In this document: positions 4,319 to 64,000 of the stretch, in pieces
Layout of the letters: every line of letters begins with the position of its first letter
Numbering within the stretch: position 1 is the stretch's first letter
Origin: Vulcanimicrobiota bacterium
Lineage (GTDB): Bacteria; Vulcanimicrobiota; Vulcanimicrobiia; Eremiobacterales; Eremiobacteraceae
Assembly (NCBI GenBank): GCA_963764965.1
Contig: CAVXUM010000006.1
Coordinates: forward strand, 27,131 to 91,130
DNA length: 64,000 nt
Direction: 5' to 3'
Program-made: the position numbers and the translations under genes
The notes under the pieces: model-generated
Seen by the model: the letters and a program-made list of their open reading frames with translations, nothing else
The model's database searches: none
What the model was told of the DNA's origin: nothing

Positions 4319-5470
4319 ATGCGCTTATTGGAGTACCAAGGCAAGGAGCTGTTCGCCAAGGCGGGCATCCCCGTGCCGCGCGGCCGCGTCGCCGCATCGG
4401 TCGATGAGACCGTGCAGATCATGCGCGAGCATCCGGTGCCGTCGGTCGTCAAGGCGCAAGTGCTCATCGGCGGCCGCGGCAAGGCAGGCGGCATCAAGTT
4501 CTGCACCAACGCCGACGACGTGAAAGAGCCGGCAGCCGCGATCCTCGGCATGACGATCAAAGGCGAGGTCGCGCACCGCGTGCTCATCGAAGAGCGCGTG
4601 GACATCGCTCGCGAGTTGTATCTCTCCATCACGGTGGATCGCGCGAGCAAACGGCCGATCGTCATCGCCTCGGCGATGGGCGGCATGGACATCGAGGAGG
4701 TCGCGGCGACCAACCCGGAGGCGATTGCGAAGTACTGCATCGATCCGGCCGATGGCTACTGGCCATTCATCGGGCGGCGCGTGGCAAAAGCGGCGATGAT
4801 GCCACCTGAGGTGACCGCCCAATTCGCGAGCGTGCTCGGCAAGCTCTATGCGCTCTTCTTCGACGTCGGCGCGATGTTGCTCGAGATCAACCCGCTGGCG
4901 ATCACGCGCGACGGCAAACTCGTCGCGTCGGACGCGAAGGTCGACATCGACGACAACGGTCTCATCCGCCACCCAGAACTCGAGGCGTGGCGCACCGATC
5001 TTCCCGACCATCCGCTCGAGCAGCGTGCGCGCAAGACCGGGCTGAACTACACGTACCTTAGCGGCAAGGGCGGCGAGAACGTCGGCGTCATCGGCAACGG
5101 CGCCGGGCTGGTCATGGGCACGATGGACGCGGTCCGAGCACGCCGGCGGCGAGGCGACCGATTTCTGCGACATCGGCGGCGGCGCGAAAGCAGACGTCGT
5201 GCGCAATGCCGTGGAGATCGTCACCGCCGATCCGCGGGTCAAAGCGCTGTTCATCAATATTTTCGGCGGCATCACGCGCGGCGACGAAGTCGCGCGCGGG
5301 TTGCTCGACGCGCTCGACGGCGGCGAACTGGAAGCGCGAGAAACTCGTCATCCGATTGACGGGCACGAACGAGCGCGAAGGCCGTGCGGTGCTCGAGGCC
5401 GGCGGCATCGCCGCGGTCGAGACCATGAACGAGGGCGCCGAAGCGCGCCGTCGCCATCGCCAAGGCGTAA
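4319..5470 (+). CDS. sucC: Succinyl-CoA synthetase beta subunit (ADP-forming), three 1-nt frameshifts near 5148, 5337 and 5448
   Basis: [23 protein letters not shown]-grasp N-terminus. The C-terminal CoA-ligase domain ([36 protein letters not shown]) is recovered by switching frames. The ORF track starts at 4262. Confidence 0.8.
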
Positions 5471-49506: not shown

Positions 49507-52179
<2,673 letters not shown>

Positions 52180-52186
52180 AAAAAAA

Positions 52187-52209
52187 GACTTGTGCCCGGG
52201 CATTGTGGG
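52187..52209 (+). repeat. Terminal inverted repeat, left copy
   Basis: GACTTGTGCCCGGGCATTGTGGG, preceded by A9. Confidence 0.6.
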
Positions 52210-52663
52210 ACAGCGAGCCCCGAGCCGAGATTCTGAAGCGCGGTTCAAACGTCCGGTATGCGCCTGACGGCCATTCGCAAGCGCGCCGAGGCTACGCGCG
52301 AATGCCTTTTGGGCGGGGATATGCGAACGCTTGATTATCGTTCGCGATCACTCGCTTTGCGCACGAACGTCCGGTATCTATTACATCGCCCGCAATTTGT
52401 GAAATTGGCGACTGAGCAAAGAGCTTAGCGACTATTTGCTTGCTACGTGTAAATCTTTTTGCCACAAAGCGTCACCCGAACGTCAGTGCGAGTCGCCAGC
52501 ACGTACGACCCAATGGAAGTTTTGTGTCGCCCCGTAACGGGCATGGTGGACTTGAATCGGCTGGAACAGGAGCCTTTTCGTCAACCTTGTTCCGGTCAAT
52601 CGGCTCAAATAGACTAGAACCCACCTGGTTTCGCCATTGGCACTTTTCGGAAGGAGTAGAGTT

Positions 52664-54431
52664 ATGCGCGAATTTACAGGGCGGCCATTAGTCGCAGTGC
52701 TAGCTGTTGTTCTTCTCTCCCTAGCGCCCGCGAGCGCCCTTGCGCGCGGCGGCGCGTTCTTGTGGCATGTCGAAAAGCTCCAGAACGGTGCTGCCGTAGG
52801 GATCGCGAAGGGCCGCGTTGTTTCCATGCACGTGGTTCATCCCAAATCTCTTGCAAGGCAGACTCCCAGCGTCAGCCGAGGCGAAATCGGCAACATTCCG
52901 TTTAGGCCTCGCTTGAATACCCAAACCTATGCGGCTTTGAAAGCCGCCGCATCTCACAACCTCCATGCTCCGAGGATGCTTAACACCTACTCGCTGCTGT
53001 CATCTGCGGCCGCGGCGGGGGGGGCCTCCCATTCAACTCGTAACGGGCCTAACCGACGGCCGCCATGTTTGCGGGTACTTCGGCACCGGCTGTCAACCGC
53101 CGGACATGGCAGTCGCGGCGTCCTCGAACTGGCTTGTGCAGGCTACCAACACAGCGGTAGCGGTCTACGATAACAATGGCGTCATGGTACTCGGGTTTCC
53201 AATCGACTTCCCCACGTTCTTTGGCGTCCCTAGCCCTGGACTATGCACATTCAATCCGAGTGGTATCCCGTTCACTTCCGACCCACGGGCTTTCTACGAT
53301 CCCAATGATAAGCGATTCTTCATCGCGATGGAGGCTTTCAATGGAGTCGCCGACGCGTGCCCGTTCTCGTCTACCGCGTACATTGCCGTAAGTCAAACGA
53401 GCGACCCGACCGGTGCGTGGAATATTTACAGCGTGGATTCCGCCCTGGCTAGCGCCACTGACTTCGACGACTATACGGAACTTGGCTTTGACAGCCAGGC
53501 CGTTTATATTGGTGGCAATCAGTTTCCGTGTTGCGCAGCTGGGTTCGGCGGCGCTTGGACGATCATACTTGATAAGCATGGCATGGAGAATGGGACCGCC
53601 ATCGCTGCGCCAAATGTCATCGGCCCATATCTCTCTTCGTCCAGTCCAACGTGCCCGGGCGGCGGCTGCTTACTCGATACGGTCAACCCGACAACGTCGG
53701 TGGCCAACCTCGCTCAGCAACCGGGAGCGACAATATTGACGTCTGCTGACCAATCGAGCCCAACCTTTGCCTGCGGTTTTGGCGTCACGTGTAATAACAT
53801 CGATGTGTGGGGAATATCGAATCCGCTTGGCGCAACTCCGGTGGTTTCGATGCAGACAGTGACGTTGCCGACGTCCTTCGTGCTGCCTCCCAACGGCGAT
53901 GAGCCCGGGCGTCCAGGATCGATTGAAACGATCGACAATCGCATCTCGGGAACGCCCACGTATACTCCGAAGGGCGGGGGTCGCGTGTCTTTTGCTCTCG
54001 AGACCGGCGTTGCGTTCGGCACAGCGACGTTTCCGGGCTTCATATGGGGCATGATCGCGATTAAGGAGGCCGGTGGTAAGCTTACCAGCGCGACCCTAGC
54101 CGAGAGTGGCGTCGTTGCCGCTGCCAACATGACCAACTCGTTCGCGGTCACGCAGCAGACCCCGCAAGGAGCTCTCTTCGTTGCGAGCGACGTGATGAGC
54201 CTATCAACGTATCCCGGCTGGGTGTATCGCCTCCAGCGTGGGGGTGTTCCGGCCGGGAAGCTCGGAGCGCCCACGCTCGTCCAAAGGGGTCTTGATATCT
54301 TCGGTGGATCGCGTTGGGGTGACTACGAGGCAGCCTCCTACGACGGGTTCTCATCGAACAACGTGTGGCTCGCGTCCCAGTATGGAAACACCAACTACGA
54401 CTGGGGCACATCTATGGCCAAAGTACACTAG
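52664..54431 (+). CDS. Secreted hypothetical protein (~590 aa), one frameshift near 53000
   Basis: RBS AGGAGT and signal peptide MREFTGRPLVAVLAVVLLSLAPASALA. Cys-containing, Gly/Ser/Thr-rich, beta-rich sequence (…RWGDYEAASYDGFSSNNVWLASQYG…). No confident family assignment. Confidence 0.5.
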
Positions 54432-54455
54432 CTATACAGCGACGACAACGAATGC

Positions 54456-54488
54456 GGGGCTACCGTGAGGTGGCCCCGTTTTTTTTTT
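54456..54488 (+). terminator. Rho-independent terminator (GGGGCTACC-gtga-GGTGGCCCC followed by T10)
   Basis: 9-bp stem with one mismatch, then a T10 run 25 nt after the stop codon. Confidence 0.65.
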
Positions 54489-54629
54489 GAGCGCGAGCCG
54501 GCCAATCAATTCAACGCCATGCACTAACGTGGGTACTCCAAGTGGCCGGAGCCCCAAGTTCATGCCACGTCTCGGTTGTTAAATTCGCGCTTTTCGACGC
54601 TCTTCGCTCTCCTGATCGGGTGTGCTATA

Positions 54630-54740
54630 TAGAATTTGCGAAACTCTGGCGTACGTTGTAGGTGCGCGTGCCCTGCAGCCCGGGCACGGGCACCTGCAAC
54701 ACTCCCCAGACTTGCGCAAATTTCTATATCGCACTCCAAC
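54630..54740. repeat. ~110-bp imperfect palindrome (GCTATATAGAATTTGCGAAACTCTGG ... CCAGACTTGCGCAAATTTCTATATCGC with an internal GTTGTAGGTG...CACCTGCAAC)
   Basis: The two arms are near reverse complements of each other. Lies between the two cargo ORFs, next to the transposase remnant. Confidence 0.4.
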
Positions 54741-54890
54741 CCCTGGGTGAACGCCGTGCTCGCGAGATGCCTGGGCTACGCTACTGCCGGCGTCAATCTC
54801 TCGCAATACCTGAAGCTTGAATTCCTTATCAAAGGACCGGTTGTGGGGGGGTTGGCATGGGTTGCTCCTTTCTTGGAGAAACCCTGACTT
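54720..54890 (-). pseudogene. Remnant of an IS3-family transposase OrfA (HTH_Tnp_1) N-terminus
   Basis: Minus-strand translation ...RSFDKEFKLQVLREIDAGSSVAQASREHGVHPGV... follows the IS3/IS911 OrfA pattern (xEFKxxxVxxxxxGxSVAxxARExGIHPNTL). It is truncated and runs into the palindrome. Confidence 0.35.
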
Positions 54891-54957
54891 AACTCGTTGT
54901 TGCAACCCCGTGCGCATTACAACCGTTCGCACTAATCTAAGAATGCGGTGAAACAAC

Positions 54958-56799
54958 ATGGCACCCCTAGTTCAATTTCTCGCTGGACTCATCGCATGTT
55001 GTTTGACGTTTTCGCTAGCAAGCGCCAAAGCCGGATTGCCGGGAATTCCCGGCGTTCCCGTTCCTCCGATCCCTAACGTGCCGAAACTCCCGACCCTTCC
55101 GTTCCCCGATGTCTCGCAGCTCCTCTCCGGTCAAGACGCCGTCAGCACGAGTCTCGCTAACGCTGTAACGGGCATCCCGTTTTTGAACGATTATCAGCCG
55201 TTCATCGTTGCTCCCCTTGAAGCTGGCTCGCGAGGTGCCGGTGGCGGTTTCGACGTACCCGCTGGTTCGTATGTGTTCGAGGCGAGAAGTTATTGCTTGC
55301 ATGCCGGCAAGTATTTTGCTGTAGGAGGCAGCGGGTATCTTTACGCGCCGCTGAAGGGATCGAAGGCGCAGATCATTCGGACTATCCTAGAGCGATCTGC
55401 AGTTCATCTTGAGGTTCCTCAGCACGACGTTCAGCTGCTCATCTGGGCGATTCTTGCTCGAGTGAGAACAAGCGACTTATCGCCACAACTGCAGGCTGAC
55501 GCCGCAAAGCTTTTGCTGCCGTCTCAAATCTTGTTGCTCAACAGTTCGGCGATCGGCGTTGTGCCAGAAGGTCAATTCGGCACTTTGTTAGCGAAGATAC
55601 CCGATTCGCTTCAACCGGTGGTGCAAACCGAGAACTCAATGCGTGGATTACTTGCCTCAAACGCAACATATGAAGCAATGGAGCGAGTCGCCGTTCCGCA
55701 ATCGCCGCAACACAGGACGACTCTCTCGCCGGTTCGATGGTCGTTCGCGCCACAAGGGTATTTTGTCTGGTACATCCCCCACGGGTTTTCATGGACGACA
55801 ACCTTTGTGGACGTACCAGGCGCCGTTCTCATGACTCAAGACTCGCTGGGCCGTGTTACGCTCTTGAAAGATCGACAAGGAGACAGCGTGATCATTTCCT
55901 ACGTTGACTCCAGCTCCGGAGCACGCGTCGCAGGGGATTCTCAGGTCGAGTTCTATCGAATCCGCTCATTGCGGTTCGCGTGGCAGCAGACAAAAGGCGG
56001 TAAAACAAGCTTACAAAGTCAAACGTGGCCGGCAAACGAGTGGGTCTTGGTCGGAGTACCTAACGGAAAGGGTCGGGTCTCGTCACGCGTGGGTTCGACA
56101 AGCGGGCAAGAATTATACAATAGCGCAGGTTCGCTCCGCGATCAATTTCTCAATCTGCTGCGGACCGTTCATGGCGATTCTCAAACACTCCCGTCTTTGG
56201 TCGCGCTGGGCGAGCTGCGGGGAGCAATGCAGTCAATATCAAGCGGTCAACAGGTTCGCTCAGCGGCTATCCATCGGGAACTGAGTTTTCCGTTCGCTGC
56301 GTGGGAGTCAGCGTTCGCCCGTTCGGTGGGAGGCCGCACCGCCGCACTCGTTGATGCGGGCATTGATCCTCCTATTAATCTGTCGGATGGGGTCGGGCAG
56401 CCGCAAGATCCTGGGGCTCAGCGGCTCGCACAGTCGCCTGTCTGTCAAGAACTTCCTCCGGGACCGGGTAATAATGCGCAACAAATAATTTCAAAAGGTC
56501 TGTCCGACGGCGGATACCCCCATGCGGGTTCAAATCCGCAGTTCATCAGCTACCAAGAAATCGGAAACACGGTGTATTGGCACATTGATCTAAATAGTTC
56601 ATTCGACCCGATATCTCCCTGCACGCCGGGAACTCCGCCCTATAGTTTTTACGGCGGAGTCCACCGCGACGGAGACAATTTCGGTGCGTCGTCCGGTCTC
56701 ATGCACAATGGGCAAACGATTGGTAAAGGCACGGGGTCGGCGCCCGAAAAATGCGCCTCATGCGCGATTGGAGAATCCTTGAGACCGATTCACTATTAG
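54958..56799 (+). CDS. Secreted hypothetical protein (613 aa, intact)
   Basis: Signal peptide MAPLVQFLAGLIACCLTFSLASA, a Pro-rich N-terminal segment (GLPGIPGVPVPPIPNVPKLPTLPFP), and a Cys pair near the C-terminus (EKCASCAIGE). No recognisable family. Confidence 0.55.
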   Translation: MAPLVQFLAGLIACCLTFSLASAKAGLPGIPGVPVPPIPNVPKLPTLPFPDVSQLLSGQDAVSTSLANAVTGIPFLNDYQPFIVAPLEAGSRGAGGGFDVPAGSYVFEARSYCLHAGKYFAVGGSGYLYAPLKGSKAQIIRTILERSAVHLEVPQHDVQLLIWAILARVRTSDLSPQLQADAAKLLLPSQILLLNSSAIGVVPEGQFGTLLAKIPDSLQPVVQTENSMRGLLASNATYEAMERVAVPQSPQHRTTLSPVRWSFAPQGYFVWYIPHGFSWTTTFVDVPGAVLMTQDSLGRVTLLKDRQGDSVIISYVDSSSGARVAGDSQVEFYRIRSLRFAWQQTKGGKTSLQSQTWPANEWVLVGVPNGKGRVSSRVGSTSGQELYNSAGSLRDQFLNLLRTVHGDSQTLPSLVALGELRGAMQSISSGQQVRSAAIHRELSFPFAAWESAFARSVGGRTAALVDAGIDPPINLSDGVGQPQDPGAQRLAQSPVCQELPPGPGNNAQQIISKGLSDGGYPHAGSNPQFISYQEIGNTVYWHIDLNSSFDPISPCTPGTPPYSFYGGVHRDGDNFGASSGLMHNGQTIGKGTGSAPEKCASCAIGESLRPIHY

Positions 56800-57167
56800 C
56801 AAATCCGGTTAAGAAGCGAAAAATGGATTAGTCATACAATGATGAGCCGAATATTTTTTGCGATAATTGACCGAGCACCGGACGTTTGCGCGCGTTTGCA
56901 ACCGTTTTGCAGATGAGTCGATAGCAATGGATTCAGTGCCGCCAAAGCCCGCAAAAAAAGGCCCTGGTTCCACGCTCGAATACCAGACTTTTCTGTGCTT
57001 CCAGCAATCTCGCCACGGAACATCGATTGTTTGCGTATTGCTCAGGCCCTGAGCGTCGGGTCATTTATCCAGTCTACCGGATGTTGGGGATCGACGCACC
57101 GGACGTTTGCGAATGGCGTTCAAGCGCAGACCAGATGTTTACGAGCGACGCGCTTCAGGATCGCTGT

Positions 57168-57190
57168 CCCAGAATGGCCGGGCACAAGTC
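57168..57190 (-). repeat. Terminal inverted repeat, right copy
   Basis: The reverse complement GACTTGTGCCCGGCCATTCTGGG matches IR-L at 21/23 positions; followed by T5. Confidence 0.6.
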
Positions 57191-57494
57191 TTTTTGAGTA
57201 GCCGCCTGAAACACATCAAGTCCACCGCACGTCCCGAAGTAGAGAACCGAAGCCGTAGACCAATACAATCGATCCTGTTCAATCCCGCTGGTTCGACACC
57301 CAATTGCATTGATTATTGGATGAATTCATAGGCTTGAACCCGGTCGTTTTTGCGGGCTTTTGCGGCCAATCCGTCGTTAATCTAATGTCCACCGAACTCA
57401 CTCAGTTTCAAGTTAGTGACCATCGCAGATCTTCCAACATTTCCGCTCCCGGATGTATCTTATACGATAGATGCTCTCGGGGAGCGAAGTCTTA

Positions 57495-58034
57495 ATGTCG
57501 GGGAATGAAGAGAAACTCGATCGGATAGCGGCAGCCGCGATGGCGGGCGAAGCGCCCGCGTTGAGTTCGCTAATGGCTCGCAGTTGGGACTTAGCTTTTC
57601 GCTTGGCTGCACGGATGCTTGGCGATCGTCAAGCCGCGCAGGATGTGGCCCAGACCGCGTGCGAGCGCGTCTTACGATCCCTCCGGTTCTTGAGATCCGC
57701 GAAAGCGTATAGCCCCTGGTTTTATTCCATCGTTACGCGGATCGCACTCCGCGAGCGTATGACGCTCGCACGACGGGCTAGTATCGAGCCTTGCGATCGT
57801 CCCGCTATCGTAGATCCAACGGATTCCGTTGCTATTAACGAGGCGATAGATCGCCTTAAATCCGAGCTAAAAGACGTCGTCGTGCTCTTTTACGGGTGCG
57901 ATCTCAGCACTGATGTTATCGCTCGCAGTTTAAACGTGCCCAACGGAACGGTCCGTTATCGGCTGCATGAAGCGCGCAAACAGCTCCGAGAAATGCTCGA
58001 GAGCACCATTGACCAGGAAAGCGTAGGATTGTAA
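57495..58034 (+). CDS. ECF (sigma-70 family, group 4) RNA polymerase sigma factor
   Basis: Region 2 (DVAQTACERVLRSLRF...PWFYSIVTRIALRE) and a region 4 HTH (LKDVVVLFYGCDLSTDVIARSLNVPNGTVRYRLHEARKQL). RBS GGGGAG. The ORF track starts at 57471. Confidence 0.75.
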   Translation: MSGNEEKLDRIAAAAMAGEAPALSSLMARSWDLAFRLAARMLGDRQAAQDVAQTACERVLRSLRFLRSAKAYSPWFYSIVTRIALRERMTLARRASIEPCDRPAIVDPTDSVAINEAIDRLKSELKDVVVLFYGCDLSTDVIARSLNVPNGTVRYRLHEARKQLREMLESTIDQESVGL

Positions 58035-58037
58035 GCA

Positions 58038-58701
58038 ATGAACGAATTTGATCAACGCATTCGTGATGCGGTGCGCGGCTCGCTTGCCGCTTATGAGGTG
58101 CCATCGCATCCGCAATTCGTACCCGAGTCTACATCAATTCACCACGGTCAAAGTAAAAGATGGGTTGTGGCGGTCGCCGCAACAGTTTGTCTAGCCTTCG
58201 TAGCGGCTGCGTCAACAGGACACATCGCTGTCGCACAACTCGAAAACACCGTTACGCAAATACTTCGATTCTTCGAAATCGATGCGCGCGGCCGGCAGTA
58301 TCCGCTAGAGACACAATCCTTGAGCTTGACCGAAGCATTGCAGACGCAAGCCTTTCATGTCATAGCACCGGCAGGGACTTCCGGACGGCACAGCGTTGCG
58401 GTCGATTCAAAGACTAGGCTCTGGCAATGCAACGACGCTGATATTTGCCTTCGATCGCGACGGGAGGCAGTTCTCGATCGTTGAGACGCCTTCAAGTTCG
58501 CAAACCATGCCAACTATTGGTTACTCGCTCGCGCCGTCCTTTCCTCACCCAAACGATCGTAGACCGCAGCCTCATGGCCACTATTTCAAGGTTCAAGCAG
58601 TCGAATGGGTAGCAGGATCCGCGCACGTGGCCCTGTTTGCCGCAACTGCATTGACGTCAGATGAGGTTATAGGCATCGAACGCGCGATGAGTCATCTGTG
58701 A
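58038..58701 (+). CDS. Putative membrane-anchored anti-sigma factor, one frameshift near 58420
   Basis: Immediately downstream of the ECF sigma gene. Short cytoplasmic N-terminus, a single TM (WVVAVAATVCLAFVAAAS), and a periplasmic C-domain continuing in a second frame. Confidence 0.4.
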
Positions 58702-59054
58702 AGATGCGAGCGTATGGTCGGCCGAGCCCTAGGTTATGGCACATTTCGACGCCCGGTCGAGGAGCCAATAACAATTGTCGCATTGGTTCCTGGTCTCACC
58801 AAGAATTCACCCTTTCCAGCCGCCGAGTTCCAACCGTGACTGTAGGAGATCGATAGGATGATTAGGGTGGCCATTAAGAATACGAACCAGTTCCGTCCAA
58901 CCGCACGCGCGAATAGGCCTAACGACGACAGCTCGGTTTCAGGCTCCACAGCTTTTCGATGCTGGCAGGCGGAAATGCGCCCTGACGTCCGGTTCTAGTG
59001 ACAATAACTTACCTCAATTCCAAACGTCCGGTGACTTCGTAAACGTTCGGCGAC

Positions 59055-60029
59055 CTATCGGGTGTTGTCGATCTCGCTTCGGCCGATCATGTAGCAAAAG
59101 CCGATAGATACCGAGCGAGGATACGACCGCGTTGTGGACGCCACACCGCCCTCGGGTTCGGTGTAATCGCTGGCCAGCGTTTGTCCGCCGTATTGCGCCG
59201 TCAGCAGCCATTGACGAGCGAGCGTTTGCGCGAAGTTCAACGTGATAGGCGTCGTGTTCGGTGAGAAGTTGTGCTGGACGAACAAGCCGATCAGCGTTCC
59301 ACCGCGCGAGCGCCACGTCGGGATGATCTGCGGCGTGAAGCTCCAGCCTCGCTGGACCCCAGACGCTGTCGTGCTTACCACTGCGTTGATGAACGGTAGG
59401 GTGACGGCGATGCCATATGGACTTCCAGGCCGGACTGGCATGCTTGCGAGCGGCATCAGCGTATAGGAAGGGCCGGCTGCTGTGAGCGATTGTGAGCCGG
59501 TCTGCGCCTGATACGACGCGGAGAAGCTAGCCAACGCGAGTGAGCGATTGTTGTAGTAAACTTCCTGTTTGTAGCCAAATGCCATGTCCGTCGCGCCAGC
59601 GACCGTGACGTCTTGTATGGTGGTGCTCTGCTCAAAGGTAGGTAAGGTAACCGATACTTGCGATCGCCTCGTGACCCCGATGACGACGAGACCGTTTGGA
59701 TAATAGAACGACCGGCCGGATCCAGTCGTCGTCTCGATTTGACCATTGAAGGTCACCTGCGAATACGAGGTTGTGTTCGTTGCTCCGTAGTTGGCTTGAA
59801 GCATAGCCTGACCCAATACGAACACACATGGTCCGCCGGCGAGGTATTTCTTGACGAGCTCGAGCGATCCGCCGCAGGGGTCGAAATACCCCGACGGCCA
59901 CACCGCAGGGCTTGGCGTAGGTGAAGGTGTTGGATTAACGGTGTCTGCGACCGCCGCGCACGGCGCGAGCAAAGCCAGGGCGACGCCCGCAATCAGCGCA
60001 CCGGATCTCATCAAGGGACGCGATCCCAC
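59055..60029 (-). CDS. Secreted beta-rich hypothetical protein (possible outer-membrane protein)
   Basis: Signal peptide ...ALALLAPCAAVA-DT and a Pro/Thr linker. 324 aa, intact. Alternating hydrophobic beta-strand pattern. Confidence 0.4.
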   Translation of the reverse strand: MGSRPLMRSGALIAGVALALLAPCAAVADTVNPTPSPTPSPAVWPSGYFDPCGGSLELVKKYLAGGPCVFVLGQAMLQANYGATNTTSYSQVTFNGQIETTTGSGRSFYYPNGLVVIGVTRRSQVSVTLPTFEQSTTIQDVTVAGATDMAFGYKQEVYYNNRSLALASFSASYQAQTGSQSLTAAGPSYTLMPLASMPVRPGSPYGIAVTLPFINAVVSTTASGVQRGWSFTPQIIPTWRSRGGTLIGLFVQHNFSPNTTPITLNFAQTLARQWLLTAQYGGQTLASDYTEPEGGVASTTRSYPRSVSIGFCYMIGRSEIDNTR

Positions 60030-61423
60030 CCGACATCGCGCCCAAGTTCGCGCGCAGCGCGATACGCTGCACGCCCGATGACGCCGGCATACGTGGGAAA
60101 CGAAAGCGGAATCCGAGCGATCACTTCTACCGTCATCTTCGCGGTCATCGCGACTGCGACCAACTGCACGATGTCCACTGCGCGCTCGCCGACGATGTGA
60201 CAGCCTAGGATTTGTCCGGTCTGCCGGTCGACGACGAGCTTACAAAAGCCGACGGTGCGGCCGTCGATAATCGTGCGCGTCGTCGAATCAAATGGTATTT
60301 TCACGATGAGGGCATCGTGCGCCTCACGGGCTTTCGCCTCCGTGAGACCGACCTGCGCATACTCGGGATCAGTAAAGCTGCCGATCGGTGCCGCCTCGTT
60401 TCCGGCGCTCATGGTCGGGCCGCGTACGGCATTGCTCCCCGCGACGTAACCTTCTTGAATGGCCTGCGGTACCAACATCGCTCTGCCATTGACGTCGCCC
60501 GCGGCGAAGATGTTCGGAACGTTGGTGCGCAGATATTCGTCCACGTGCACGCAGCCTCGCGCTTCTGTCGTGACGCCCGCAGCCGCGAGATCTAGTCCGG
60601 CCGCATCAACGACCCATCCGACCGCGACAACTGTAAGCGCAGCCTCGGCGGATTCGCGGGTGCCTTCCTTTACATACGTCATGCGTACGCCACGCGCGCT
60701 TTTCTCAAATCGTTCGATTTGGCCAAAGCTTTCGCGTATCTCGATGCCTGACTCACGGAATGCGGCCGTGACGGCCGCCGAAACATCTTCATCTTCTGTC
60801 GGGATGATTCGCGCGGCTGCTTGGAAGAGCTGTATGCGCGATCCAAGCGCGTTGAAGATTGAAGCGACTTGCGCGCCTGTCGCGCCCGCGCCGATGACTA
60901 GCATTGATTCAGGAACGGATTTGAGCGCAAGCGCATCACCAGGGGTGGCAGTCAGCTCAAACCCCGGAAGGTCGAGCTTTCGACTCACGCCTCCCGTGCA
61001 AATGATGATCTTTCCGGCTTGAAGCTTCGTTCCATCTGCCGCTAAGACAGTCTGCGAATCGAGAAATCGAACGGTGCCGGCTCGTTCGTACAACGTCACA
61101 CCCAGACGGTCGACGTCGTCGCGCCACGCCGAGTGCGTGCGTACCTCGGCGATGATGCGATTCACGCGTTCGAGCAACTGCGCGTAGTCAAGTTTCGGCA
61201 CACCGACGGCGATGCCGTATTCAGGCAGTTGACGCGCCTCACGCATGAGGCGCGCCGCATGAGCGAGCGTCCTCACAGGGACGGGCCCATCGTTAGCGGC
61301 CATGCCGCCAAATCCGCCCGACGTGATGAGCGCGGTTCTCGCGCCGAGATCACCGGCTCGCATCGCCGCGTTCACGCCTGCAGGGCCTGCGCCGATGACA
61401 ACAACGTCGAACACCGTTGTCAC
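60011..61423 (-). CDS. FAD/NAD(P)-binding pyridine nucleotide-disulfide oxidoreductase family protein (Lpd/MerA-like fold) lacking the redox-active CXXXXC motif
   Basis: Intact 470 aa. FAD motif VVVIGAGPAG, NAD motif LVIGAGATGAQ, and a C-terminal dimerisation domain. The position of the disulfide motif reads GGFGGMAANDGPVPVRTL, with no Cys. Confidence 0.7.
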   Translation of the reverse strand: MTTVFDVVVIGAGPAGVNAAMRAGDLGARTALITSGGFGGMAANDGPVPVRTLAHAARLMREARQLPEYGIAVGVPKLDYAQLLERVNRIIAEVRTHSAWRDDVDRLGVTLYERAGTVRFLDSQTVLAADGTKLQAGKIIICTGGVSRKLDLPGFELTATPGDALALKSVPESMLVIGAGATGAQVASIFNALGSRIQLFQAAARIIPTEDEDVSAAVTAAFRESGIEIRESFGQIERFEKSARGVRMTYVKEGTRESAEAALTVVAVGWVVDAAGLDLAAAGVTTEARGCVHVDEYLRTNVPNIFAAGDVNGRAMLVPQAIQEGYVAGSNAVRGPTMSAGNEAAPIGSFTDPEYAQVGLTEAKAREAHDALIVKIPFDSTTRTIIDGRTVGFCKLVVDRQTGQILGCHIVGERAVDIVQLVAVAMTAKMTVEVIARIPLSFPTYAGVIGRAAYRAARELGRDVGWDRVP

Positions 61424-61425
61424 GC

Positions 61426-62748
61426 CTACGATGTGAGAGCAGCCAGCCAGCGCAGCGCAGAAAGGCTCGGCATGAAGCAGTATTCGCCGCCCCGCGTTGT
61501 GACGAAGCGAGGTAAGCCCTGCATGCGCCGGCGGACGGGCCTGCGTGGAATCGTGAAGACGCCTCCGCCCTCGTTCACGCCGCTGATCGGGTCTTGCTCG
61601 TCCGAGACGCCGAAGAACACGCTATCGTTGATCCACTGCGACTGGACAAACTCGAATTGGCGCTTCAAGTGCGAACCGATGAAGGCGAACATGATGCCGC
61701 GGTCGGCGCCATCGTCCTCAAGCACGCCGTCGGGCAACGGCGGGCCATATGCAGTGCCTCGTCTCAGCATGCGGTGGAGCCGCACGAAGCCGGCGATGTT
61801 CGCGTCGCGCGGATTTGAGCGACGCATGTGCGAGCAAGGCGGAGTCTTGAACCCGATGTCGTCGTCGGCGAACGAGAAGTTGTTATTGCGCGACGGATCC
61901 GCACCAAGTTGCGGATCGTCATGCTCCGGCGCGAGCGCTAGCGGAGCGCCGCTGCGCCAGCGCCCCATCATTTTCGCGGCCAGTAGCTCTTCTTGCGCGT
62001 CGTGTTCTGAGTTGGTGCGCAGGTATTGGCGGAACGCCGCCACGCGCTCGTGCAGCTTGCGAAAGACCGCGTAGGTGCCGTTGCGTCCTAGCACGTCGGG
62101 CTGCGGCATCGGTGGAAACCCGCCCATTTCGTCGCGATAGCCGAGAATGAACTCGCCTGCCTTTAGCGGCGTCTCACGCGGATTGGAACCCGGGATGCCC
62201 GTGCCCTCGATCGCGGGATGACTGATGCCGTCGCGATAGCCGAAGTGCTCCTTTTCGGTCGGGAGGGCGTAGCAGTCCTGACGCCACAGCGCCGTGATCC
62301 CAGGAAACGTCTGGTGTGCCTCGCGCACGCGCGTGAGCTCTTGCTCGAGTTGTTCTTTCTTCGGAGCGATCGCGGTGAAGATGACGTGGCAGTCCGGTGT
62401 ACCGAGCGGTTTTTCCCAATGCTGCGGCGCGCTCTCCCCAGTGTCGCCCAGCACGTGCGCACGCGCAGCCATGCCGTGCACGAATTCAGGCGGAAAGCTC
62501 TCGAGGGAAGCCTGTGGTACTCCCAGCGCCTCGAGTCCTGCATACGTCAGCGACACGCTCGCCCACACATCGCCGCGCGGGCTATGCGGATGAGCGACCG
62601 ACGCGACCGCGGTGCCGGCGCGCCGCATCAACTCGCGTCCGGCCGCCTTGTCATCAATGCGTATGATGATGTAGGTAGCGGCAAAGGGAGTTGGCCGCGA
62701 CCGGACGGCGCCGCTTTGGATGTCGTCGAGCTGGAGCGGCTCGCTCAC
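61426..62748 (-). CDS. Dyp-type (dye-decolourising) peroxidase
   Basis: Intact 440 aa. DyP signature region (FGYRDGISHP, IGSHLKRQFEFVQSQW). Confidence 0.75.
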   Translation of the reverse strand: MSEPLQLDDIQSGAVRSRPTPFAATYIIIRIDDKAAGRELMRRAGTAVASVAHPHSPRGDVWASVSLTYAGLEALGVPQASLESFPPEFVHGMAARAHVLGDTGESAPQHWEKPLGTPDCHVIFTAIAPKKEQLEQELTRVREAHQTFPGITALWRQDCYALPTEKEHFGYRDGISHPAIEGTGIPGSNPRETPLKAGEFILGYRDEMGGFPPMPQPDVLGRNGTYAVFRKLHERVAAFRQYLRTNSEHDAQEELLAAKMMGRWRSGAPLALAPEHDDPQLGADPSRNNNFSFADDDIGFKTPPCSHMRRSNPRDANIAGFVRLHRMLRRGTAYGPPLPDGVLEDDGADRGIMFAFIGSHLKRQFEFVQSQWINDSVFFGVSDEQDPISGVNEGGGVFTIPRRPVRRRMQGLPRFVTTRGGEYCFMPSLSALRWLAALTS

Positions 62749-63767
62749 TTGGCGGCGATGTTCTTCCAGAAGCGCTCGAGGCTCTCGTCGCCGCCGAAAA
62801 GTGTGGTGAAGATGGTCGAGTCGGCCAGCATGATGTCTCCCGCCCGGTCACCGCTCGGCGGCATCCACAAGAACATGTTGAACTCTTTGTCACCCGCTTG
62901 CGTGAATGGATGCGGCCTTGAGAGGTCGACTGGTTGCTTCGCGAGCAAGTGGATCGATTTCGTGTCGTCGGTCGTGAGCGCATAATGGGGCAGATGCGGG
63001 TGGAAGTTGAACGTGGCGACCCCCTCGAGAAACCCGCGCCGATCGAGGTCCCGAAATGTGGTGAGCGGCGCAATTTGGTTCTTCGTGCCCTCAACGGTCG
63101 CCGGTCGAAGGCCCCAGCGGTTCTCGACCGGCACTCCCAGCGCTTTCATCAACGATCTCGTGTAGCGGCCGAAACGTTGCTGCCTTGGAACGAGCGCGTC
63201 GCGGTGATGACGGTATTCCATCTGACGCTGCTGCATGTCGCTGGAGCTACCGACGTCGTGATGCGGGCTCAAGACGAGCGTCGTCCCTTCGCGCTTTAGC
63301 CAATTGCGAATGGCCTCGATCTCCTCGGGCGACGCTGCTTGTTCGGTTACCAGATGGTCGAGTCCGAACACCATGAGCGTGTCGGTATCGGCCAAGATAC
63401 GCTCATCGATCGGCAATTTCTGCCCGGCTTGATCGATGCGCTGGTAGTCGATGACCGGCTGCCCGGTAGCCTCGCCGACAACTTGCTGGAACCGGACGAT
63501 TGAAAGATGGAACAGCTCGAGCGTTCCAGCTATGCCCTGCAGGAACATCTGCTCCGAATACTCCGGCGTCTCGTACGAGGGCCAGGCGACTCGGCGCACT
63601 TCCGTCATTGTCGAAAAGCGATTGTCAAGCTCGGTGACATCGCGATTCGATTCCCAGGGATAGCTCCAGGTCCAGTAGACGCTGAAGCGCCGTTGACCTA
63701 TCTTATACGGACGCGGCACGTTGAGTTGATTGTACGTGCGCGGCGACCAGATCGCACCGTTCGGCAT
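62745..63767 (-). CDS. Hypothetical protein, first gene of the DyP operon
   Basis: Intact 340-aa ORF whose stop overlaps the DyP start. No confident family assignment. Confidence 0.4.
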   Translation of the reverse strand: MPNGAIWSPRTYNQLNVPRPYKIGQRRFSVYWTWSYPWESNRDVTELDNRFSTMTEVRRVAWPSYETPEYSEQMFLQGIAGTLELFHLSIVRFQQVVGEATGQPVIDYQRIDQAGQKLPIDERILADTDTLMVFGLDHLVTEQAASPEEIEAIRNWLKREGTTLVLSPHHDVGSSSDMQQRQMEYRHHRDALVPRQQRFGRYTRSLMKALGVPVENRWGLRPATVEGTKNQIAPLTTFRDLDRRGFLEGVATFNFHPHLPHYALTTDDTKSIHLLAKQPVDLSRPHPFTQAGDKEFNMFLWMPPSGDRAGDIMLADSTIFTTLFGGDESLERFWKNIAAK

Positions 63768-63774
63768 GCTGCGC

Positions 63775-63960
63775 CTATTGCATCTGGTCGAGCATCTCGG
63801 AAAGCGCCTGCTTCACTCTCAGCGCTTTCTTAATCTCATCGGCGGTGACGTACGGAACCTCTGCGTACTCCAAGAAGCTTGGATGGTGATGTTCGCGCAC
63901 CCACTTCACGAATGCTTGTGGATTCGTCTTCCAATCCTCCGGGAAGCCCTCGAGATTCAT
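63775..63960 (-). CDS. Small hypothetical ORF at the window edge
   Basis: 61-aa ORF (MNLEGFPEDWKTNPQAFVKWVREHHHPSFLEYAEV...). The start lies 40 nt from the window end; the true N-terminus may be outside the window. Confidence 0.25.
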   Translation of the reverse strand: MNLEGFPEDWKTNPQAFVKWVREHHHPSFLEYAEVPYVTADEIKKALRVKQALSEMLDQMQ

Positions 63961-64000
63961 GAACGAGGTTGTTATTCCGGACTGACTGAAGAGCGCGACC

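Follow-up and report, generated by a model that had tools for sequence, protein, structure and literature searches.

A cargo-only insertion behind secA as a probable non-autonomous casposon derivative

The window, a stretch of 64 kb of DNA, contains a 5.0-kb element at 52182-57195 directly behind secA, which is probably a non-autonomous casposon derivative ('mini-casposon') integrated by a casposase supplied in trans. Casposons are Cas1-driven transposons that are thought to be the origin of CRISPR. Both casposon ends are kept, each consisting of a conserved core of about 30 bp of the terminal inverted repeat (TIR) followed inwards by AAACGTCCGGT repeats. The interior holds passenger genes only (two secreted proteins) and an IS3 scar, without the casposase gene (cas1) and the family-B DNA polymerase (PolB) of the autonomous members. 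No recombinase, integrase or transposase gene is encoded by the element and no casposase gene was found within the 64-kb window; most likely, the element depends on a Cas1 integrase encoded elsewhere. An earlier note on this DNA had described a cargo segment without integrase or transposase that was either mobilised in trans or decayed, which is supported by the present analysis. Its statement that the segment fits no nameable family had to be given up, as the same ends and the same target belong to Cas1- and PolB-encoding casposons.

Target gene and boundaries of the insertion

The target gene is secA (49507-52179, + strand), whose last codons, ...KKCHGVAA*, hold the insertion point. The insertion at 52166-57211 is bounded by TIRs and by a direct repeat of the secA tail, and the earlier claim of an inserted segment of the mobile-element type with TIRs and a target-site duplication (TSD) exactly at the secA end was thus confirmed. 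The 12-mer GAGTAGCCGCCT is found at 52166-52177 and 57196-57207 with 12 of 12 matching positions; in the shuffled window, a mean of 0.32 matches with at most one mismatch was obtained. A 23-mer at 52187-52209 recurs as its reverse complement at 57168-57190 with two mismatches (0 matches in shuffles). Within the window, both repeats are confined to the secA insertion.

The inverted repeat of 23 bp reported before was therefore found again, but its true length is about 100 bp with one indel. It comprises 52182-52283 on the + strand, with the core AAAAAGACTTGTGCCCGGGCATTGTGGGACAG at 52182-52213, and 57104-57195 on the - strand, where the core at 57164-57195 is the reverse complement of AAAAAGACTTGTGCCCGGCCATTCTGGGACAG. 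For the direct repeat, 15-16 bp is the more convincing length; it reads GAGTAGCCGCCT[A/G]AAA, with the left copy GAGTAGCCGCCTAAAA at 52166-52181 (+) and the right copy GAGTAGCCGCCTGAAA at 57196-57211 (+) agreeing in 15 of 16 positions. This length was derived from a comparison with the loci L004, L087/L106, L101, L108 and L099 (L numbers denote the compared loci) and replaces the 12-bp duplication proposed initially, as five loci with clean junctions show a duplication of 15-16 bp from a fixed anchor. In all loci with a readable junction, its first base is the second base of the Gly codon in the conserved SecA end ...KKCHG, right after CACG. The duplication matches the secA tail of its own genome in 15 of 16 positions in the window, L004 and L101, in 16 of 16 in L087/L106 and in 15 of 15 in L108. 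As the genomes have different secA tails, each insertion is an independent event.

The secA stop codon TAA (52177-52179) is followed by A9, whereas T5 lies ahead of the right repeat, as described earlier; with a duplication of 15-16 bp, the A9 results from four bases of the duplication and the A5 with which the TIR begins. On this reading, the stop codon lies inside the duplication, as TAA in the left and TGA in the right copy, and is not donated by the element, as had been assumed. A tblastn search with the SecA of L004 gave three pieces, which together span 49507-52176 and are separated by two frame changes (~50091-50094 and 50713-50729). The assembly has indel errors, so that neither homopolymer lengths nor the frameshift in the first cargo gene can be relied upon. 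Pfam domains were assigned on the exact 457-aa secA product P0001.

Directly upstream of the duplication, the coding sequence of the SEC-C zinc motif, ...GGTAAGAAGTACAAGAAGTGTCACG (52140-52165, +), may act as a leader-like recognition segment by analogy with casposase targets (PMC9939771). Subterminal (C/G)AAACGTCCGGT copies facing inwards are present at both ends and are putative protein-binding sites. By motif match, they are located at 52247-52257 and 52365-52375 (+) on the left and within 56877-57140 (-) on the right, where the copies at 56877 and 57098 are exact and those at 56982, 57076 and 57130 have two mismatches each.

The G + C content is about 0.52-0.61 inside the insertion vs. 0.60-0.67 in secA. 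The AT-richer interior noted before is thus real, but the low G + C content runs past the right repeat to ~59.8 kb. The right flank has neither synteny with relatives nor prfB, and no true empty site of the same species was found.

Cargo genes and interior

The first cargo gene (52664-54431, +) encodes a secreted protein (~589 aa; signal peptide MREFTGRPLVAVLAVVLLSLAPASALA), for which Pfam and NCBIfam profile searches gave no match. One frame change between 52965 and 53173 is probably an assembly error. The gene is followed by an intrinsic-terminator-like hairpin with an 11-bp stem and T10 (54454-54489, +). The second cargo gene (54958-56799, +) encodes a 613-aa secreted protein without assigned function, whose family comprises 68 hypothetical proteins, none of them with Pfam domains; its AlphaFold2 model has a pLDDT of 77. 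Between the two genes lies an IS3-type orfA remnant (54579-54959, -) with an HTH_Tnp_1 domain at ~54738-54842 (PF01527, E = 5.6e-7), which is overlapped by a palindrome of ~120 bp at 54619-54737. Together they are a secondary IS scar within the element. Two secreted proteins, a strong terminator and an IS3 remnant with a palindrome had all been described in the earlier note and could be verified, with a signal peptide in each of the two genes. The cargo confers no function on the element itself.

Elements with the same ends in relatives

In Eremiobacterota relatives, the same TIR occurs at the same secA position on elements encoding a Cas1-solo integrase and a family-B DNA polymerase, which identifies these elements as casposons. 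In L110, a TIR identical to that of the window in 28 of 30 positions lies directly behind the secA stop codon; the sequence runs from the secA tail ...TGCCACG through GGCTGGCAACAGTCT into the TIR AAAAAAGACTTATGCCCGGGCATTATGGGAC, followed by AAACGTCCGGT copies, and Cas1 is encoded 4 kb inside the element (PF01867, E = 2e-28). L099 combines a window-type TIR with a Cas1 (E = 9e-32, C-terminal HTH) and a PolB-like protein. Its Cas1 matches solved Cas1 structures with aligned catalytic E/H/D positions, including chain 6opm, which we take to be the casposase of Methanosarcina mazei; it scores above the generic NCBIfam cas1 cut-off and passes no CRISPR-subtype model. In the closest casposons (L099, L107), motif C of the PolB-like protein reads MTDG instead of the canonical DTD, and the protein has a sub-threshold Pfam match only. 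A complete casposon of 14.4 kb, bounded by perfect TIRs of 44 bp, is present in L108; it encodes Cas1 as well as a PolB in which Exo I, motif A and YCDTDS are found. Its 15-bp TSD GCGCCGCAGCCTAGT lies directly behind the secA stop codon, and another TIR is found past the distal TSD. AAACGTCCGGT is placed equally far from the terminus in many cassettes, as well as in the casposon ends of L099, L103 and L110.

A pattern search for the TIR revealed 23 metagenome loci, and nearly all matches are located at secA ends or element junctions, not scattered in the manner of REP-like repeats. The interior of the window element is not shared by the relatives. At least 20 other elements with the same ends carry differing cargo, such as secreted proteins and restriction or other defence genes. 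Complete elements without cas1 are, besides that of the window, those of L004 (4.8 kb) and L101 (1.0 kb). Tandem elements parted by a single copy of the duplication are present in L099, L103, L100, L088 and L108. In near-identical strains with the same secA 3' sequence, a secreted-protein cassette is found in L084 and a methylase/SNF2 cassette in L085, and in L099 a casposon is inserted ahead of an L084-type cassette. The insertions at the secA end are turned over among near-identical strains.

Origin of the element and the secA end as an insertion site

Casposases integrate any TIR-flanked DNA, produce TSDs of 14-15 bp, require an upstream leader-like motif and yield tandem arrays with one common TSD (PMC9939771, PMC4779613, PMC4046053). 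The median TSD of casposons is 15 nt, and in archaea the 3' ends of genes are known casposon targets (PMC4046053). For the window element, a casposase provided by a full casposon at another site in the cell or within the population would bind the TIRs and, as the fixed anchor suggests, read the highly conserved SEC-C coding sequence at the secA 3' end as a leader-like signal. The 3' ends of the element would then be joined to target strands 15-16 bp apart, right after ...CACG, as seen at the junctions. Gap repair would produce the observed duplication of the final 15-16 bp of secA, by which secA stays intact. A newcomer would enter the secA-proximal copy and push older elements downstream, which would give rise to arrays with single duplication copies between elements, as present in the five tandem loci.

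The main rival, which is considered unlikely, is decay in place: a complete casposon would have been inserted, and its core genes, cas1 and polB among them, would later have been deleted or replaced internally, e.g., via IS3, leaving a dead relic. The IS3 remnant and palindrome in the middle of the element indicate that the interior was rearranged, so that such a loss after insertion is possible for the window copy, and IS3 copies are found on both sides of a homologue of the 613-aa gene elsewhere. The two TIRs have 2 mismatches in the 23 core positions, with the indel further in, and archaea are known to contain inactivated casposons as well as solo TIRs (PMC4779613). However, at least three complete cas1-less elements (window, L004, L101) of 1.0-5.0 kb have unrelated cargo, many further ends lead into non-casposon genes, and repeated, independent and clean gutting is less economical than trans-mobilisation. 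Moreover, the duplication is still identical in 15 of 16 positions, although the right copy is not under selection.

An element of a tyrosine or serine site-specific recombinase, with the secA tail as attB/attP core, the inverted repeats as core-type and AAACGTCCGGT as arm-type sites, is very improbable. Such elements typically enter the 3' end of a conserved gene and restore its end, and on inspection the direct repeat, inverted sites and subterminal motifs resemble attL/attR. No integrase is present in any complete element (window, L004, L101, L108), though, and these ends are linked to no recombinase-type enzyme other than Cas1. Length and start of the repeat are constant while its sequence varies between genomes, which is the signature of staggered cuts and not of a shared core.

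There is equally little to be said for the left repeat being a native conserved sequence behind secA, e.g., a regulatory site, within a local rearrangement or assembly artefact. An A-run and GCCCGGGCATTnTGGGA follow the secA stop codon in several relatives with no second copy in the available sequence (L001, L003), and the assembly carries the indel errors described above. Against this, in five loci the motif recurs inverted at the far end of elements, accompanied by a secA-tail copy; it also stands back to back at tandem junctions and is missing behind secA in L002 (prfB after 96 bp) and in more distant Eremiobacterota. An artefact is further contradicted by a short independent contig of run ERR12037367, in which the 613-aa gene is followed by the sigma-factor gene with the 696 bp spacing of the window, judged from gene coordinates. 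That a classical DDE insertion sequence gave rise to a mobile insertion cassette or MITE-like element here, as the transposon reading of the earlier note implies, is extremely unlikely. A 12-bp duplication would suit IS4 or IS231 (10-12 bp; ISfinder family descriptions), and Bacillus is known to have elements with IS ends that carry cargo only, but the duplication is 15-16 bp long, insertion is strictly site-specific and 0 of ~25 ends are linked to a DDE transposase. The IS3 orfA is the sole trace of a transposase; it lies in the interior and is not related to the ends.

The non-autonomous casposon derivative thus preferred is closest to bacterial casposon family 3 by host and to family 1 by target type. 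Like the self-synthesizing casposons, which encode Cas1 and PolB, it has TIRs, a TSD of ~15 bp and site-specific entry at the 3' end of a conserved translation- or secretion-related gene that is left intact. Tandem arrays with one common TSD and IS elements parasitising the interior are shared as well, and relatives of the window ends encode a Cas1-solo with C-terminal HTH and PolB. It differs in lacking cas1 and polB, in its host phylum (Eremiobacterota), in its target secA and in the several subterminal 11-bp repeats; published bacterial casposons are reported from intergenic regions only (PMC4779613). Artificial mini-casposons, in which casposon TIRs enclose a resistance gene, were studied in vitro and in E. 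coli (Hickman and Dyda, 2015; Beguin et al., 2016); as reviewed in PMC9939771, any TIR-flanked DNA is integrated by a separate casposase at a specific target, often in tandem and with a TSD of ~15 bp. These are laboratory constructs of an archaeal system, whereas the cas1-less elements described here are natural and diverse with host-relevant cargo. In the tandem casposons and solo TIRs of Methanosarcina (PMC4779613), the site is likewise reused, neighbours are parted by the shared TSD only and decayed copies stand beside intact ones, but the neighbours are full or degraded casposons, while the array members here are mostly unrelated cargo cassettes.

The Tn7-like homing suggested before holds as an analogy only: as at attTn7 behind glmS, elements home to the end of a conserved essential gene without disruption and islands build up in tandem. 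IS231 mobile insertion cassettes similarly carry passenger genes between transposon ends and are mobilised in trans. Both differ in the enzyme (DDE/TnsABC vs. Cas1), in the duplication (5 or 10-12 bp vs. 15-16 bp) and in their unrelated ends. In CRISPR arrays, too, a Cas1-family integrase works beside a leader, a short repeat is duplicated per insertion and new units enter leader-proximally, forming repeat-insert-repeat arrays. The inserts behind secA are kilobase gene cassettes with TIRs instead of ~30 bp spacers, and the secA elements show no evidence of guide transcription and no Cas2 or effector genes.

In the searchable literature, neither a bacterial casposon clade targeting a protein-coding gene nor natural cas1-less cargo casposons could be found. 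Since the cargo of the sister elements consists of defence or secreted-protein genes, the secA end can be regarded as a gene-cassette hotspot served by casposases.

Ends, interior and assembly of the window element

The cargo-only insertion behind secA (52182-57195) is bounded by the repeats that an earlier note had listed, namely the 12-mer GAGTAGCCGCCT at both 52166-52177 and 57196-57207 and the 23-mer GACTTGTGCCCGGGCATTGTGGG at 52187-52209, whose reverse complement recurs at 57168-57190 with two mismatches. The secA stop codon TAA (52177-52179), the following A9 on the left and the T5 before the right repeat were likewise recovered. Neither repeat is accounted for by chance: shuffled sequences contained no match to the 23-mer, even at three mismatches, and on average 0.32 matches to the 12-mer with one mismatch tolerated. 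The inverted repeat is longer than the 23 bp first assigned to it and reaches about 100 bp with one indel (52182-52283 versus 57104-57195), with two differences in the core 23-mer. The window element has terminal inverted repeats (TIRs), a casposon-type feature with lengths of 25 to 602 nt in the literature (PMC4046053). The left end carries two inward-pointing copies of (C/G)AAACGTCCGGT and the right end five; within the initial 52 kb of the window, exact copies are absent. Three further subterminal motifs of the inward type (TGACGTCCGGT, AAACGTCCGGT, and AAACGTTCGGC) are found at 58983-59051, outside the element and with no TIR core adjoining.

Two of the previous claims, a target-site duplication of 12 bp and a stop codon donated by the element, were corrected by comparing five loci, which revealed a fixed start of the duplication after CACG, a length of 15-16 bp and a stop codon inside it. 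In the window, the duplication is read as GAGTAGCCGCCT[A/G]AAA at 52166-52181 and 57196-57211 (15/16 identical). As the SecA tail of the window is one codon shorter than the tails of its relatives, the duplication passes the stop codon and only 12 bases seemed to be repeated. The A9 then consists of four duplication bases and the A5 of the TIR, which matches the T5 at the right. A length of 15-16 bp was obtained for the window and for the four other loci readable on both sides, within the range of about 14-16 bp taken for such a duplication.

The interior of the element was largely found as described before. No recombinase is encoded in it according to Pfam, and it contains two genes with signal peptides, at 52664-54431 (one frame change) and 54958-56799 (613 aa), a strong terminator-like hairpin at 54454-54489, and an HTH_Tnp_1 (IS3 orfA) remnant with a palindrome. 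The palindrome of about 120 bp (54619-54737) lies beside the orfA remnant (54738-54842), just 5′ of the 613-aa gene. In the related locus L112 (5012-8664), a homologue of this gene has an IS3 copy directly 3′ and a second, inverted IS3 copy further downstream, which suggests that the 613-aa gene moves with IS3 elements too. The 613-aa gene also occurs on an independent short contig from run ERR12037367, where the sigma-factor gene lies 696 bp after it, the same spacing as in the window, as taken from gene coordinates. No RNA family was detected with Rfam in 51.5-60.5 kb. The lower G + C content reported for the element is real, but it is not confined to the element and continues beyond the right repeat to about 59.8 kb. 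The region 57212-59800, where G + C is still low, contains an ECF sigma factor gene (57471-58034) and unknown ORFs and may represent the remains of older cassettes.

The window secA gene (49507-52179), the C-terminal half of whose product has its nearest relatives in Candidatus Eremiobacterota/Eremiobacteraceae MAGs, contains two frame changes, at 50091-50094 and 50713-50729, within well-conserved sequence with 85-92% identity on both sides to the SecA of the related locus L004. The database copy is split as well, as the exact product P0001 comprises only the last 457 aa. Frame changes in conserved sequence indicate indel errors in the assembly, and for this reason homopolymer lengths and the frameshift in the first cargo gene should not be over-read.

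Insertions behind secA in related loci

Synteny upstream of the window element is unbroken through the end of secA in five related loci and then stops. The usual gene after secA in relatives is prfB, at a very variable distance of 96 bp (L002), about 1 kb (L021), about 2.2-2.4 kb (L001, L006, and L007) or 6.8 kb (L004). No prfB follows secA in the window (52180-64000), although this neighbourhood is conserved in related Eremiobacterota, and the right flank of the window shows no similarity to any relative compared; it may reflect a rearrangement at the hotspot or a much longer array.

Locus L004, whose SecA product is 83% identical to that of the window, has the same architecture behind secA. 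The stop codon is directly followed by an A-run and a TIR-like sequence, copies of AAACGTCCGGT lie deeper inside, and a degenerate inverted end 4.8 kb downstream is followed by GCGTGGGAGCGACGTA, which matches 15 of 16 positions of the own secA tail GCGTGGGAGCGGCGTA. Since the tails differ and each is duplicated in place, the two insertions are independent events at one site.

Metagenomes were scanned for the TIR core with the pattern AAAAAGAN{7,8}CCGGNCATTNTGGGA, resulting in 23 loci spread over more than ten samples; L086 among them looks like a chance match. Ten motif-oriented matches are located directly after a secA stop codon, and most of the remaining ones are far ends, with the reverse complement of the own secA tail as outer flank, or junctions of two ends. 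At the junctions in L099 and L103, a single secA-tail copy separates two opposed ends. One 2.69-Mb contig contains both L087 and L106, which mark the opposite ends of an 18.2-kb element flanked by GTCTCGCCACTGTATA with 16/16 identity, and L101 holds a clean element of 1.04 kb whose duplication matches at 15/16. Without exception, the duplication of 15-16 bp starts at base two of the Gly codon in ...KKCHG, and at all loci it directly follows ...TG(C/T)CACG of the conserved SEC-C coding sequence, as is to be expected of a sequence-specific target. We infer that this conserved segment upstream of the duplication is recognised by the integrating enzyme.

A REP-like or regulatory dispersed family, the former raised in the earlier note, is dismissed for the repeats, as the window contains two copies only and nearly all metagenome matches lie at secA ends or element junctions. 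The left repeat was also considered as native sequence downstream of secA, given that L001 and L003 at first showed the motif without a partner; this reading was dropped when secA-tail copies turned up at distal ends, together with back-to-back junctions. The sequence AAAAACAYGACCGACCGGGTTGTTCC, considered as a native attB half and rejected as such, occurs in both orientations, as left end (L106, L088) and as right end (L100, L001), and is a second TIR variant. This variant, AAAAACA(T/C)GACCGACCGGGTTGTTCC, was observed in L106 (~4708-4733), L088, L089, L100, and L001 (~1833-1852), where it forms left ends that follow a distal duplication as well as right ends; a decayed mini-element of ~370 bp immediately downstream of secA in L001 terminates in it.

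Two further arrangements were observed. A degenerate secA-tail copy (…GKKYKICHGPAAV, ending in a stop codon) abuts a TIR in L084 (560-690) and L095 (10580-10660), and the L084 copy runs opposite to the real secA, from which it follows that TIR-mediated inversion or duplication also occurs at the secA locus. In L105 (50-150), the gene whose stop codon adjoins a TIR is not secA (product …GGTIYKVTYQ); the flank …GGTCACGTACCAGTAGA bears a loose likeness to the secA target (TCACG … TAG, then A-run), and the locus may be a secondary target site.

The cargo is almost wholly different from element to element, as a comparison of interiors revealed. Examples of the defence type are a type I restriction-modification system, HsdS/M/R, in L106 (5298-10570), a CAP12/Pycsar-type TIR protein with a nucleotidyltransferase and a Ser/Thr kinase fragment in L087 (1-2894), and a methylase, an SNF2 helicase and a NOV_C protein in L085 (364-6376). 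A secreted protein of about 464-465 aa is common to L084, L004, and L095. It was considered as a new transposase, with L084 resembling a one-gene IS-like unit, and was rejected due to its signal peptide and lack of nuclease features and due to the far end of L084, which abuts an inverted pseudo-secA tail and no clean duplication.

Casposons with the same ends and target

No Cas1 is encoded in the window element (Pfam) or anywhere in the 64-kb window (tblastn), and the element lacks a family-B DNA polymerase. Cas1 is encoded in five related loci, L099, L110, L108, L107, and L109. The L099 element encodes, from its TIR, a 546-aa Cas1 (PF01867, E = 9e-32, C-terminal HTH) and a PolB-like protein. 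Solved Cas1 structures, among them chain 6opm, the Methanosarcina mazei casposase, can be aligned to it, and the catalytic Glu, His, and Asp/Glu positions are conserved. The L099 Cas1 scores above the generic NCBIfam cas1 cut-off and below every CRISPR-subtype model. In total, 192 homologues of about 520-570 aa were found at E ≤ 1e-10, many of them attributed to Eremiobacterota.

Locus L108 contains a complete 14.4-kb element with perfect 44-bp TIRs that encodes Cas1 and PolB, the latter with Exo I (FVIDTET), motif A (DAVSMYPT), and motif C (YCDTDS). It lies directly after the secA stop codon with the 15-bp duplication GCGCCGCAGCCTAGT on both flanks, and the distal copy is followed by the TIR of an older neighbour. 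The Cas1 of L110 is 82% identical to that of L099, and its junction reads ...AAGAAATGCCACG/GGCTGGCAACAGTCT/AAAAAAGACTTATGCCCGGGCATTATGGGAC. The window TIR is identical at 28 of 30 positions to the L110 TIR and at 25 of 32 to the L099 TIR. Furthermore, the subterminal AAACGTCCGGT repeats are common to the window element and its cas1-bearing relatives, and in L110 they extend about 330 bp inwards. L099, L107, and L110 have a module of polB-like, ORF146, ORF330 (HTH protein), and cas1 in common. The neighbourhood of these Cas1 genes showed neither cas2 nor effector genes nor CRISPR arrays.

The PolB proteins of L108, L107, and L109 were missed by Pfam and identified by motif inspection. In the casposons nearest to the window element, the PolB-like protein (L099 8559-10484, L107 5920-7986) has Exo I (YDGE), motif A (DIRSAYPS), and motif B (KLALNSLYG), MTDG or ATDG in place of motif C (DTD), and a match to PF03175 of only E = 7e-5; judged from these motifs, it may be a divergent or inactive polymerase. 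A 379-aa casposon protein, encoded at L099 1933-3072 (-) and L103 247-1383 (+), carries an N-terminal SEC-C zinc motif (RGRNDPCWCGSRLKYKKCH), the same motif as that encoded at the secA target site.

The Cas1-bearing elements L099, L108, and L110 are casposons. The window element has their ends, target and duplication without their genes, and the previous statement that it fits no nameable family no longer holds.

Mobilisation or decay, array growth and significance

The window element probably belongs to this casposon-end family and acts through a casposase. Within this assignment, movement in trans is considered more probable than decay in place. The window copy could be a gutted casposon, and the IS3 scar is indeed an internal change in it; against this stand several complete, unrelated cas1-less elements of 1.0-5.0 kb, the different occupants of L084 and L085 behind identical secA ends, and the well-preserved duplication in the window. 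These three observations favour the mobilisation of cas1-less units, and the complete elements and the turnover among near-identical strains lend indirect support to a casposase supplied in trans. Other element classes fit less well. An IS4/IS231-type element or mobile insertion cassette would be expected to give a 10-13-bp duplication, whereas 15-16 bp were found, and a DDE transposase was linked to none of about 25 ends. An integrative element of the tyrosine- or serine-recombinase type is disfavoured, as the complete elements contain no integrase and the repeat is fixed in length and genome-specific in sequence, unlike an att core. The likeness to Tn7 drawn in the earlier note does not extend to membership: no TnsA/B/C(D) genes were found, and Tn7-like elements have TGT...ACA ends and a 5-bp duplication, whereas here an A-run followed by GA and 15-16 bp are found.

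Casposases integrate any TIR-bearing DNA, produce duplications of 14-15 bp, require a leader-like segment upstream of the duplicated sequence and give tandem insertions with one common duplication (PMC9939771, PMC4779613, PMC4046053). At secA, the conserved SEC-C coding sequence would serve as the leader. The first strand transfer would take place after CACG, with the second 15-16 bp further downstream, and the secA tail would then be duplicated by repair, leaving secA intact. The junctions and the fixed anchor of the duplication are directly observed; the SEC-C segment is presumably what the enzyme recognises, with the AAACGTCCGGT repeats as putative binding sites. Polar growth of an array was shown in one case. 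In L084, a secreted-protein cassette directly follows secA, and in L099 the far end of the casposon is followed by one 15-mer and then by an identical stretch of at least the first 150 bp of the L084 cassette.

Casposons, which are rare and for the most part archaeal, are central to the hypothesis of a transposon origin of CRISPR adaptation. Their TIRs and duplications, the targeting of gene 3′ ends (aEF-2, tRNA), tandem arrays and solo TIRs are already known. Published bacterial casposons are described as intergenic (PMC4779613). In the searchable, incomplete literature, neither a bacterial casposon clade targeting a protein-coding gene nor secA as a casposon target was found, nor, in sources represented mostly by titles and abstracts, a natural cas1-less cargo casposon.

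The 192 homologues of the L099 Cas1 suggest a large bacterial casposase clade, and the data suggest a new casposon target, the secA 3′ end at a fixed nucleotide. They also suggest natural cas1-less elements that use casposon ends for cargo, including restriction-modification and defence genes in the sisters, and CRISPR-like arrays in which elements are divided by one duplicated repeat, with the newest beside secA. A broader proposal, for and against which we see about even chances, is that the Eremiobacterota casposases are the integrase of a natural gene-cassette system, in which cas1-less, TIR-bounded cassettes carrying defence systems or secreted proteins are successively captured at the leader-like SEC-C coding end of secA, and the 15-16-bp repeat is duplicated per capture, resulting in leader-proximal repeat-insert arrays. 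If true, such a system would amount to a present-day counterpart of the intermediate that has been proposed between casposons and CRISPR arrays; its cassettes would be the first non-autonomous casposons known from nature, and the clade would be the first among bacterial casposons to target a protein gene. For annotation, the variable region behind secA is explained, and the SecA C-terminal tail has to be regarded as part of a recombination site. The locus offers a natural system in which the reading of a leader and the measuring of a repeat by a Cas1-family integrase can be tested, and it would point to casposases as what possibly drives a genomic hotspot in this uncultured phylum.
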